From: an uncultured bacterium
GTDB lineage: Bacteria; Patescibacteriota; Patescibacteriia; Magasanikbacterales; GWA2-37-8
Length of the DNA: 64,000 bases
Reading direction: 5' to 3'
Assembly (NCBI GenBank): GCA_937903605.1
Contig: CALCZC010000007.1
Coordinates: 37,982 to 101,981, forward strand
The notes under the pieces were generated by a model. It worked only from the letters and a program-made list of their open reading frames with translations, made no database searches and had not been told where the DNA came from. Positions 11,713 through 18,331 of this stretch are shown here, in pieces; the first letter of the stretch is position 1, and each line of letters begins with the position of its first letter. The position numbers and the translations under genes are program-made.

Positions 11713-12305
11713 TATTCCAATATTCCGTCCAAGTTCACATCATAAAGAATCTCTTCCGCCAATAATCTATAATTGATAATTTCTTCTTTTTTAAACCAAA
11801 TATCTATCTCTCTTTGGGATTCCGCCGGATTATCGGTACAGTGCACCAAATTGCGCACAGCTCTATCATCTGTCCCGGCTAAATTATAGGAATCAAGTGT
11901 TAAATCTCCGCGAATAGTACCTACATCGGAAGTTGCAGGTTCGGTAGAGCCAACCAGTTTTTTTACCACCCCAACAGCTTCATTACCTTCCCATATCATC
12001 ATCACCACCGGACCACAGGTCATAAACTTTACCAAGGCTTTGATGATATCTTTTCCATATTCAATAGCTAATTTTTCCACCGGCAAACCGGCCTTTTGGC
12101 GATTTTCCAAAATTTTGGCACCTTTACTTTCAAACCAAACATCATCTTTATTATAATGAACCCAACATTGATCCTCTGTTGGCACGGCCATTTTTAAAGC
12201 TACCAGTTTTAAACCGGTTCGCTCGATCCTCTTGATAATTTCTCCTATAAGAGATCTCTGAACTCCGTCTGGTTTAACGATGACGAATGTGCGTTCTTTT
12301 TTCAT
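11712..12305 (-). CDS. ndk: Nucleoside diphosphate kinase (elongated, 197 aa)
   Basis: TFVIVKPDGVQR, GPVVMMIWEGNEAV, GTIRGD and NLVHCTD (Ndk active-site His region). Has an internal insertion and C-terminal extension compared with the canonical ~140 aa. Confidence 0.8.
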   Translation of the reverse strand: MKKERTFVIVKPDGVQRSLIGEIIKRIERTGLKLVALKMAVPTEDQCWVHYNKDDVWFESKGAKILENRQKAGLPVEKLAIEYGKDIIKALVKFMTCGPVVMMIWEGNEAVGVVKKLVGSTEPATSDVGTIRGDLTLDSYNLAGTDDRAVRNLVHCTDNPAESQREIDIWFKKEEIINYRLLAEEILYDVNLDGILE

Positions 12306-14041: not shown

Positions 14042-14288
14042 AAAAATTATTTTTGTACTCAGAAGGAGTAGTGCGCCCTGTACAAATGGTGGGCGGAAAG
14101 AGACTCGGCTTCGCCTCTCATCGCCTTCCGGCTTACTCGGGCTAGCCACCGCCTCGTGATTTTGCTCGTCATAAAACTCGCAAAATATCACTCCGGCGTT
14201 CTCGTCTCCACGAAATGCACATTAGTGCATTTCTATTGCAAACAAAGAATGATTTAAAATTTTAACATCTTGCAACCTAATACTCTGT

Positions 14289-14395
14289 ACAAATGGTGGG
14301 CGGAAAGAGACTCGAACTCTTAAGGCCTTGCGACCGCTACCACCTCAAGGTAGTGCGTCTACCAACCTGCCTGCCGGCAGGCAGGTTTCGCCACC
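14289..14395 (-). tRNA. Atypical tRNA-Leu(GAG)-like gene / possible pseudo-tRNA
   Basis: 3' two-thirds is a good tRNA: anticodon arm CTACC TTGAGGT GGTAG, long variable arm, T-arm AAGAG TTCGAGT CTCTT, acceptor 3' TCCGCCC-A-CCA. A 20-nt perfect palindrome CCTGCCTGCCGGCAGGCAGG sits in the D-loop. No 5' acceptor strand complementary to TCCGCCC could be found. Confidence 0.35.
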
Positions 14396-14422
14396 TCTTT
14401 CTTTATTCAATGATTATAACTA

Positions 14423-14508
14423 GGTGTCCAGAAGAGGACTCGAACCTCCATGGCCTTGCGGCCGCTACCACCTCAAGGTAGTGCGTCTACCAATTTCGCC
14501 ATCTGGAC
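14423..14508 (-). tRNA. tRNA-Leu (anticodon GAG)
   Basis: Acceptor GTCCAGA/TCTGGAC, D-arm GCG AAATTGGTAGA CGC, anticodon arm CTACC TTGAGGT GGTAG, long variable arm CGGCCGCAAGGCCATG, T-arm GGAGG TTCGAGT CCTCT, discriminator A + CC. Confidence 0.8.
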
Positions 14509-14745
14509 TTTTATGTATTCTTTTCCACAACCAGATTTAAGATATTTTTCTCTTTTTCTTGCTTTAATTCTTGATTCGAATTCTTCTGTAAAAATTATTT
14601 TAAATGGTCTATATGGTTTTGTGGTTTTATTTTTTCCCAAATTATGCTGCGTAAATCTTTTTTCTATACAACTTGTAATACCGACATACACATAATTTCT
14701 ACTTAAGCTTTTAAGAACATAAATGTAATACATACTATACATCAA
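14473..14745 (-). CDS. GIY-YIG nuclease family protein (YhbQ-like)
   Basis: YIYVLKS...NYVYVGIT...RFTQHN are the GIY-YIG core motifs. About 90 aa. The last ~12 codons overlap the 5' end of tRNA-Leu. Confidence 0.65.
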   Translation of the reverse strand: MMYSMYYIYVLKSLSRNYVYVGITSCIEKRFTQHNLGKNKTTKPYRPFKIIFTEEFESRIKARKREKYLKSGCGKEYIKVQMAKLVDALP

Positions 14746-17956: not shown

Positions 17957-18331
17957 TTAATTATTTTTATAATTATATTTTTTCAAACCATTTATCAATT
18001 TACTCACAACTACTGTTTGATTGGCAAATAAACTAAATTTTTCCTGATTAATATATCCAATATCTTTAACTATTAATAATTGATTCTGCAATTCAGTTAA
18101 AGATCCTAAGGCCATGCTAAAAAAATTATTTTTATCCTTAGAGGTTGACCGACTGAAACCTTCAGCTATATTAGATGTAACAGAAACAACACAACGTCTC
18201 ATTTGACTTACTAAACCAAAGATTTCCTTATCCGGAAAATTTCCAGTTTCTTTATAAATTAATAATACTAATTTATGACCTTCTTTCCAAGCATTCAAAC
18301 CTGTAAACGATTTTATTTTCTTCCCCTCCAT
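17957..18331 (-). CDS. Four-helix-bundle protein (23S rRNA intervening-sequence protein family), second copy
   Basis: LVSQMRRCVVSVTSNIAEGFSRSTSKDKNNFFSMALGSLTELQNQLL matches the family core (IAEG...F...A.GS..E). Flanked by AT-rich inverted-repeat-like sequence. Confidence 0.8.
   Translation of the reverse strand: MEGKKIKSFTGLNAWKEGHKLVLLIYKETGNFPDKEIFGLVSQMRRCVVSVTSNIAEGFSRSTSKDKNNFFSMALGSLTELQNQLLIVKDIGYINQEKFSLFANQTVVVSKLINGLKKYNYKNN

Follow-up and report, generated by a model that had tools for sequence, protein, structure and literature searches.

We analyzed the surroundings of a tRNA-Leu(GAG) gene in a 64,000-nt stretch of contig CALCZC010000007.1 (hereafter the window), which its neighboring DAGK-family protein assigns to Candidatus Magasanikbacteria (Patescibacteria). 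All described features of the locus sit on the minus strand, and the open reading frames (ORFs) listed between positions 12000 and 17000 are of housekeeping type. Downstream of the DAGK-family gene lie a small GIY-YIG nuclease gene (14473–14742), a functional tRNA-Leu(GAG) gene (14423–14508), an atypical tRNA-Leu(GAG)-like copy (14294–14400) and a 207-bp insertion that is bounded by an exact 30-nt repeat and contains a ~120-nt structured element, here termed E. The locus exposes two recurrent tRNA-associated elements that are apparently undescribed in the literature searched: a full-text search returned no description of E, nor of the cassette formed by the GIY-YIG gene, tRNA-Leu and a palindrome.

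The locus was compared with 80 loci fetched from related genomes, 80 fetched metagenome loci and the contexts of GIY-YIG homologues (numbered L001 onward). ARAGORN called a tRNA in 73 of the 80 related loci, each time a single tRNA-Leu(GAG) that immediately follows the DAGK gene. Only the genome of the window has two; these tRNA-Leu(GAG)-like sequences, already proposed in the initial annotation, share 83% identity across 71 nt. The 721-nt region shows no difference between two samples assembled independently of each other (ERZ724087 and ERZ724081), which answers the concern that the duplication might be an assembly artifact, and the assembly of a third sample extends as far as the palindrome. 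Short-k-mer assemblies of the same organism (L002, L003, L006) stop ~37 nt into the canonical tRNA, and their contig ends fall within a 41-nt stretch common to both tRNA copies. Such breakage in the shared tRNA body is expected of a true repeat, and tRNA-repeat loci of this kind will often be split in public assemblies.

The canonical tRNA (acceptor GTCCAGA/TCTGGAC, referred to below as allele B) is called by ARAGORN and scores 51.9 bits with the Rfam tRNA model. The 89-aa GIY-YIG gene does overlap its 5' end, as first annotated: the ORF and the tRNA share 36 nt, the last 11 codons coming from the tRNA and the stop being the TGA of the anticodon loop, and the start of the gene overlaps the stop of the upstream DAGK-family gene. 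The protein carries the GIY-YIG catalytic domain (PF01541, 7e-17), and no separate DNA-binding domain was seen in it; homologues are 77–90 aa long and consist of the catalytic domain only. These number more than 240, at 57–77% identity, in Patescibacteria, Bacteroidota and Omnitrophota. Pfam was run on this ORF and on the downstream membrane-protein ORF only, other Pfam labels being taken from the gene table of L001; NCBIfam gave no model for either protein.

The GIY-YIG gene shows presence/absence polymorphism, occurring at the DAGK/tRNA-Leu junction in 5 of the 80 related loci. The junction is an insertion hotspot, which across the same 80 loci holds a GIY-YIG gene five times, a LAGLIDADG gene six times and a 23S-rRNA-IVP-family gene once. 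The LAGLIDADG-type genes (L037, L040, L046, L047, L064 and L065) are freestanding, encode ~210–227 aa (PF14528/PF00961) and occupy the exact position of the GIY-YIG gene of the window; the L065 copy is frameshifted, and in L037 a short tRNA-like fragment is retained ahead of the start codon. The 23S-rRNA-intervening-sequence-family gene (PF05635) is inserted at the DAGK/tRNA junction of L014 (4776–5165). Elsewhere in the window, at ~17957–18331 on the minus strand (L001 7179–7553), another PF05635 gene is flanked by the genes for tyrosyl- and arginyl-tRNA synthetase.

In the D-loop of the atypical copy, at 14366–14385, the 20-nt perfect palindrome CCTGCCTGCCGGCAGGCAGG noted at first annotation was recovered; it occurs once in the window, with none expected in shuffles. 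Palindrome and nuclease gene had been treated as unrelated features, but comparison across loci links them. All five Magasanikbacteria loci with the GIY-YIG gene have the palindrome within a tRNA-Leu fragment, vs. none of the 75 loci without the gene, and it lies in the D-loop of a partial tRNA-Leu beside a GIY-YIG gene in L012, L023, L039, L045, L225, L226/227, L228 and L229. In L023, L039 and L045 the gene stands between the intact tRNA and a copy of the 5' part of that local tRNA, which runs to ~position 37 and carries the palindrome at D-loop 21/22. Five GIY-YIG homologues, including those of Flagellimonas crocea and Buchananbacteria, were chosen arbitrarily, their context not being known beforehand. 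Each of the five is followed, 5–30 nt downstream, by an intact tRNA-Leu (anticodons gag, caa, tag, taa and taa), and four are preceded by a copy of the leader and 5' part of that tRNA with the palindrome (the same or with 1–3 mismatches); the upstream copy of the fifth (L222) is more degenerate and rearranged. The ten GIY-YIG loci examined, from two phyla (Patescibacteria and Bacteroidota), all place the gene directly upstream of a tRNA-Leu. Because gene, palindrome and partial tRNA-Leu were found together in all ten, we take them to be one conserved composite. Judged from sequence, it is a predicted cassette in which a GIY-YIG gene is combined with one intact tRNA-Leu and one partial copy whose D-loop holds the fixed 20-nt palindrome, and it recurs across phyla. 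From this recurrence a candidate substrate can be proposed for the tiny GIY-YIG proteins, a very common family: either the palindrome or the D-loop of tRNA-Leu. Breakpoints at D-loop 21/22 also recur, in that 5' fragments stop, 3' fragments begin and the palindrome is inserted there, which hints at a candidate cleavage site but proves nothing.

The palindrome is also found on its own, in intergenic DNA, in frame in argS of L062 and as a variant in the tail of one E copy. In L062 (2233–2252) the arginyl-tRNA synthetase is ~7 residues longer than that of the window. L034, L059 and L068 have variants in intergenic DNA, L225 has one at 1210, and the variant CCTGCCAGTAGGCAGG is inserted in the tRNA-Phe-derived tail of E in L142 (1000–1045 of the oriented locus).

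The atypical tRNA copy is best placed at 14400–14294. As RNA it reads AAAGAGG, TG, GCG, AAA, the palindrome, TTGGTAGA and CGC, followed by normal anticodon, variable and T-arms and then by TCCGCCC, A and CCA. The D-arm is abnormal, with the 20-nt palindrome standing between GCGAAA and TTGGTAGACGC. The 3' acceptor strand TCCGCCC requires GGGCGGR, and intact homologues carry GGGCGGG as the 5' strand; in the window AAAGAGG is found there, with which no pairing is possible, so that the seven-base-pair acceptor stem is lacking and the 5' strand is indeed missing as first reported. A 5' acceptor strand was sought in cis and across the window, where nothing tRNA-like was found. The Rfam tRNA model RF00005 gave no hit to the copy at E ≤ 1, nor at E ≤ 10 (401-nt search). 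The absence of acceptor pairing, the disrupted D-arm and the lack of a covariance-model hit indicate that the copy is dead. It is highly improbable that it functions as a tRNA whose palindrome is removed or tolerated and whose 5' acceptor strand comes from elsewhere, as in split or permuted tRNAs. Anticodon, variable and T-arms and the encoded CCA are all intact, and ARAGORN reports 14376–14294, and only this part, as tRNA-Leu, yet the acceptor of that call borrows half of the palindrome and, as read from the sequence, has two mismatches in seven pairs. No GGGCGGR lies upstream, and the minus-strand GGGCGGA matches elsewhere in the window lie inside coding sequence or far off, without tRNA-like context. 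The same lesion is present in L012, where a second palindrome interrupts the anticodon, and a normal tRNA-Leu(GAG) lies 22 nt away in the window. As ARAGORN reports the dead copy as tRNA-Leu, copies of this kind will inflate tRNA counts in Patescibacteria.

The origin of the copy can be read from its closest relatives, among which two alleles occupy the DAGK/tRNA-Leu site. L011, L014 and L089 have an intact allele A (GGGCGGG...TCCGCCCACCA); an intact allele B (GCTCAGA... or GTCCAGA...) is found in the window and also in L012 and L013, whose sole tRNA it is. Over the stretch from TTGGTAGACGC through CCA (14365–14294), no difference separates the atypical copy from the allele A that L011, L014 and L089 carry intact. 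The T-stem differences from the canonical gene, which had been taken as compensatory changes indicative of function, are thus inherited and allelic, since the 3' two-thirds of the copy are those of allele A in the sisters. The remainder (14400–14366; AAAGAGG, TGGCGAAA and the palindrome) is the same in the partial cassette copy of L012. There the shared 5' part (AAAGAGGTGGCGAAA, the palindrome and TTGGTAGACGC) is found again, likewise preceded by a GIY-YIG gene and an intact allele B, and is joined to a different 3' part with a second palindrome at anticodon position 35/36. A stretch of ~32 bases around the anticodon arm is the same in alleles A and B. We infer from these comparisons that the atypical copy, designated tRNA-Leu pseudogene A*, is a dead chimera that arose by homologous recombination inside the tRNA body: the GIY-YIG/allele-B module would have entered an L089-like locus by homologous recombination, and one crossover within the ~32-base stretch shared by A and B would have joined the dead 5' part of the cassette to the resident allele A.

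Traces of further tRNA-Leu copies are present at these loci. At 14055–14077, downstream of the distal 30-nt repeat, the window retains a remnant of an older 5'-truncated allele-B tRNA-Leu (GGCGCACTAC and TCCTTCTGAGTAC, with an internal deletion between them), longer truncated forms of which persist in L014 and L011. A third tRNA-Leu allele is represented by a 5' fragment (GGACGAGTGGTGAAATTGGTATA) that lies upstream of intact allele A in L011 (3869–3915), L014 (5226–5272) and L089 (4808–4854) and ends in each at D-loop position 21; the 3' acceptor strand of this third allele (CTCGTCC) is retained at the end of the dead copy of L012 (5104–5237). The third-allele fragments suggest, at the sequence level, that the resident tRNA may have been replaced serially. 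Every insertion seen was accompanied by a duplication or a replacement tRNA copy, and the locus illustrates how repeated hits are survived by an essential tRNA gene present in one copy.

The 30-nt duplication is real, the 30-mer being exact at 14285–14314 and 14078–14107 with none expected in shuffles, and it consists of tRNA C56 to A76 plus 9 nt of flank (TTTGTACAG). Alignment with sister loci revealed an empty site in L011 and L014 (...CCGCCCACCATTTGTACAG followed directly by GGCGCACTACC); at this very point the window and L089 carry a precise 207-bp insertion, with the repeat as its boundary. The insertion begins with a 5' extension (14210–14284), which contains the hairpin AAATGCAC/GTGCATTT and is also present in L089; its first 11 nt are also found in L071. 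The extension is followed by E, whose left arm (GGAGACGAGAAC, 14198–14209) is an imperfect inverted copy of T-arm positions 53–64 of the adjacent tRNA and pairs with GUCUCU of the distal repeat (helix P0). The conserved core of E (14108–14197, ~90 nt) comprises helices P1–P4 and a hairpin with a GGAA tetraloop, and the distal repeat forms the 3' tail. Similar arrangements were found behind other tRNA-Leu alleles in L013, L014, L026 and L087, and in each of them the distal repeat matches the local tRNA. A 52-nt insert of L071 (4855–4925) shares its initial AGAGTATTAGG with the insertion of the window; it stands behind a tRNA resembling allele A, and its end is the 3' part (C56 onward) of another tRNA-Leu allele.

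For the sequence enclosed by the repeats at five loci, RNAalifold predicted 37 pairs, compensatory changes being present in 16, and a covariance model (R1) built from these five aligned loci matched the window at 14088–14210 (120.2 bits, E = 6e-29). R1 detects E in 6 of the 80 Magasanikbacteria loci. For the metagenome sample, a two-block exact sequence pattern yielded 112 stretches, and 71 of the 80 loci fetched contain a full-length E (57–129 bits). Across the metagenome copies 92% of cells pair and 24 of the 37 pairs show double changes; none of 500 shuffles reached the observed pairing and covariation, and a slid control was also far below. The position of U.G wobbles on the tRNA strand, together with the conservation of a C(GGAA)G tetraloop, points towards a predicted fold formed from a single strand of tRNA polarity, most simply RNA. 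Searches of Rfam 15 with the window and a young E copy (E ≤ 1 and E ≤ 10) returned no family for E and, in particular, no match to tmRNA, signal recognition particle (SRP) RNA, RNase P RNA, group I or II introns, known self-cleaving ribozymes, HEARO or IS605 RNA. Hammerhead, hairpin-ribozyme and SRP-like motifs, assessed by eye, do not fit and are not conserved among E copies. A tRNA-like gene on the opposite strand was ruled out by the wobble pairs on the tRNA strand, and an acceptor-like helix for the tail was rejected, no partner sequence covarying with tRNA type. Viral contigs gave 19 pattern matches and no true E. A weak second R1 match in L026 (7629–7734, minus strand; 25.8 bits, E ~8e-4) lies inside a long hairpin with no adjacent tRNA and may be a divergent relative of E. 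In L017, L070 and L079, which lack E, a GAGCGAnnCAATAGTTTGG-like sequence resembling the 5' hairpin of E occurs in the first 30 nt after the tRNA and may be the footprint of lost copies.

The flanks of E follow the tRNA beside which it sits. A same-strand tRNA lies 19–155 nt upstream in 54 of the 71 loci, and 17 tRNA specificities are represented (Leu, Lys, Tyr, Ala, Asn, Pro, Ser, Met, Gly, Arg, Phe, Asp, His, Glu, Gln, Val and Thr). In 45 of these 54 loci the terminal 16 nt of E equal the 3' end of the upstream tRNA with at most two mismatches. The duplication always begins at T55/C56 and is mostly 18–22 nt long, reaching 27–83 nt at some loci, where it includes locus-specific flank. On the left side of the core stands an inverted copy of the T-arm of the same tRNA, from G53 to position 63–65, in which the bases complementary to T-loop 57–58 are exact (TC) in 30 loci and GA in 19. 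The left arm complements nucleotides 59–63 of the neighboring tRNA in 36 of 54 loci, vs. 12% for unrelated T-arms; it tracks the rare T55C variant and still matches the tRNA where the tail has diverged (L185, L149, L135 and L156). Cores up to 96.6% identical occur at different tRNA species with arms that differ, each fitting its own tRNA. Such near-identical cores with locus-matched arms indicate recent movement of E between tRNA species, both arms being taken from the new target. E was also found at different tRNAs of the same tRNA cluster in related contigs (L158 vs. L123, L153 and L165). A CCA in the tail that is absent from the gene, considered as a sign of a mature-tRNA template, was seen at ~5 of 45 loci, not clearly above chance. 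In L189 (1875–4578) there are three copies of one tRNA-Lys 3' end, in the tRNA itself, ~0.9 kb downstream and in the tail of E 2.6 kb downstream, as though further DNA had entered the site once E was in place.

The past mobile-element activity suspected at this locus is borne out. Its attribution to an integrase, with the 30-nt repeats as attL and attR of a tyrosine-integrase element in the tRNA 3' end and the 177 bp between them as the leftover of an interior deletion, is not the best reading and seems improbable to us. In its favor, direct repeats of a tRNA 3' end flank foreign DNA and an intact-looking 3' end remains on the tRNA side; the duplication starts in the T-loop, which is a classic crossover site of tRNA-targeting integrases, and the three tRNA-Lys 3' ends spread over 2.6 kb in L189 resemble accretion at one att site. 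No integrase, however, lies near the site in the window or within 4 kb of the 71 related copies, and the intervening DNA is not decaying but has a conserved structure with compensatory changes. An extent fixed by attP is at odds with repeats of 18–83 nt that include locus-specific flank, the inverted copy of the same T-arm on the other side is left unexplained, and near-identical cores occur at different tRNA species with no chimeric tRNAs produced.

E could instead be mainly a host RNA, a structured tRNA trailer with an antisense 5' arm and a decoy 3' tail that might act in tRNA processing, quality control or regulation and spreads by duplication and recombination. We regard this as unlikely, if less so than the integrase origin. 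The covariation is strong, with conserved single-stranded motifs and a GNRA loop, E is always on the tRNA strand, the window shows no terminator between tRNA and E (a promoter and terminator scan of the window gave nothing above chance), and the left arm fits the upstream tRNA even where the tail has diverged. A host function sits poorly, however, with the presence of E at only 6 of 80 orthologous tRNA-Leu loci, its presence/absence polymorphism among close relatives and its placement at different tRNAs within one cluster; up to 65 nt of duplicated flank beyond the tRNA have no obvious function, and tails drift from the tRNA sequence. A role as host RNA could coexist with mobility.

The explanation we favor, and consider probable, is that the locus is a mosaic in which two kinds of selfish insertion, the GIY-YIG cassette and E, have struck one tRNA-Leu(GAG) gene, leaving the atypical copy as a dead chimera. 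The resident allele A would already have had E directly behind it, and the 30-nt repeat would be the flanking duplication of E. Copies of E form a family in which the structure covaries, flanks match the local tRNA, sites are found empty and filled, and closely similar cores sit at different tRNAs; E would accordingly be a non-autonomous mobile element aimed at the T-loop, which it would recognize by base pairing. It may be inserted by copying, one break being fixed at 55/56 and the other variable, in a manner resembling target-primed reverse transcription of an RNA co-transcribed with the tRNA. In such a scheme the bottom strand would be nicked at 55/56, the tail of the E transcript would anneal at the nick, the core of E would be copied, a snap-back would create the inverted arm, and a second nick at a variable distance would create the duplication and leave an intact tRNA upstream. 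As expected of a retroelement, E has a precise 3' junction (55/56) and a duplication of variable length (18–83 nt), and the model fits most features of E. More tentatively, E might represent a new class of RNA-based mobile element, a small structured RNA that is co-transcribed with the tRNA, locates tRNA genes or tRNAs by pairing over 11–13 nt across 55/56, is joined at that point and copied into DNA, and retargets itself to any tRNA by having both arms re-templated at each move; we hold this to be possible but doubtful. The missing enzyme could then be a ribozyme activity, a host reverse transcriptase or something else.

Several observations weigh against the explanation we favor. No recurrent protein family was found within 4 kb of the 71 E copies, where only housekeeping genes and spurious ORFs over E occur; neither a linked reverse transcriptase, integrase or transposase nor any other enzyme able to move E lies within this distance of any copy. 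The favored reading gives no account of the way in which every new target comes to template the inverted arm. Some of the long duplications show a portion of E's own 5' hairpin again beyond the tail, which a simple target-site duplication does not predict, and ~14 E copies have a tRNA-like tail with no tRNA within 400 nt. The RNA nature of E rests on the GNRA loop, wobble pairs and strand bias, and the chimera scenario on five sister loci. The metagenome sample, drawn with an exact pattern, is probably biased to Magasanikbacteria-like genomes; the RecA gene beside one E copy is Patescibacteria/Magasanikbacteria-like, so that the sampled copies may stem mostly from this lineage.

The traits of E, which sits at tRNA 3' ends of any specificity with target-derived arms on both sides, fit no class of mobile element or RNA tested. 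If E does retarget itself, it would embody a new mode of insertion-site choice and a candidate tool for insertion beside tRNA genes. The tRNA-associated elements of tyrosine integrases resemble E in that foreign DNA follows an intact tRNA on its 3' side, that a displaced copy of the 3' part of the tRNA comes next and that the junction falls in the T-loop. They differ in that E has no integrase, an insert of ~120–200 nt with a conserved fold, a duplication whose length varies with local flank, an extra inverted copy of the T-arm and near-identical cores at many tRNA species. Site-specific non-LTR retrotransposons and SINEs insert by target-primed reverse transcription. With these, E shares a precise 3' and a variable 5' junction, a variable target duplication and a presumably non-autonomous character, and like them it could be transcribed from a tRNA promoter; unlike them it is bacterial, has no reverse transcriptase partner within 4 kb, lacks poly(A) and a tRNA-derived head, and has an inverted target copy at its 5' end.

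The omega RNA, or reRNA, of IS200/IS605 TnpB elements consists of a scaffold and a guide taken from flanking DNA. E is similar in that a conserved scaffold is followed at the 3' end by locus-specific, flank-derived sequence. It is dissimilar in that no tnpA or tnpB adjoins it, no ORF family is linked to it and no Rfam match was obtained; moreover, the first bases of its tail pair with the 5' arm, and the flank is a duplicated copy of the upstream tRNA. Nor did the 4-kb surroundings of the 71 copies contain a linked ORF family corresponding to iscB or an IS110 recombinase gene. The tRNA genes of Patescibacteria often carry group I introns (PMC13011429). The 5' arm of E recalls their internal guide (P1/P10) in being the reverse complement of the uninterrupted target (53–55, 56–65). 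Rfam Intron_gpI gave no hit on E at E ≤ 10 and the conserved catalytic core (P3–P9) is lacking; unlike these introns, E lies behind the tRNA and does not interrupt it, and its site is T-loop 55/56 rather than the anticodon loop, with no G.U at the junction.

For the GIY-YIG module, the closest described analogue would be SegB, a freestanding GIY-YIG homing endonuclease in the tRNA gene cluster of phage T4 (PMC2330249). In both cases the gene lies between or beside tRNAs, shows presence/absence polymorphism at a conserved site and is accompanied by neighboring tRNA alleles that appear to be co-replaced. The protein of the window differs from SegB in being a ~78-aa catalytic domain with no DNA-binding domain, for which cleavage is only predicted, and in being chromosomal and distributed across phyla, always at tRNA-Leu and always with a fixed palindrome in a partial tRNA.

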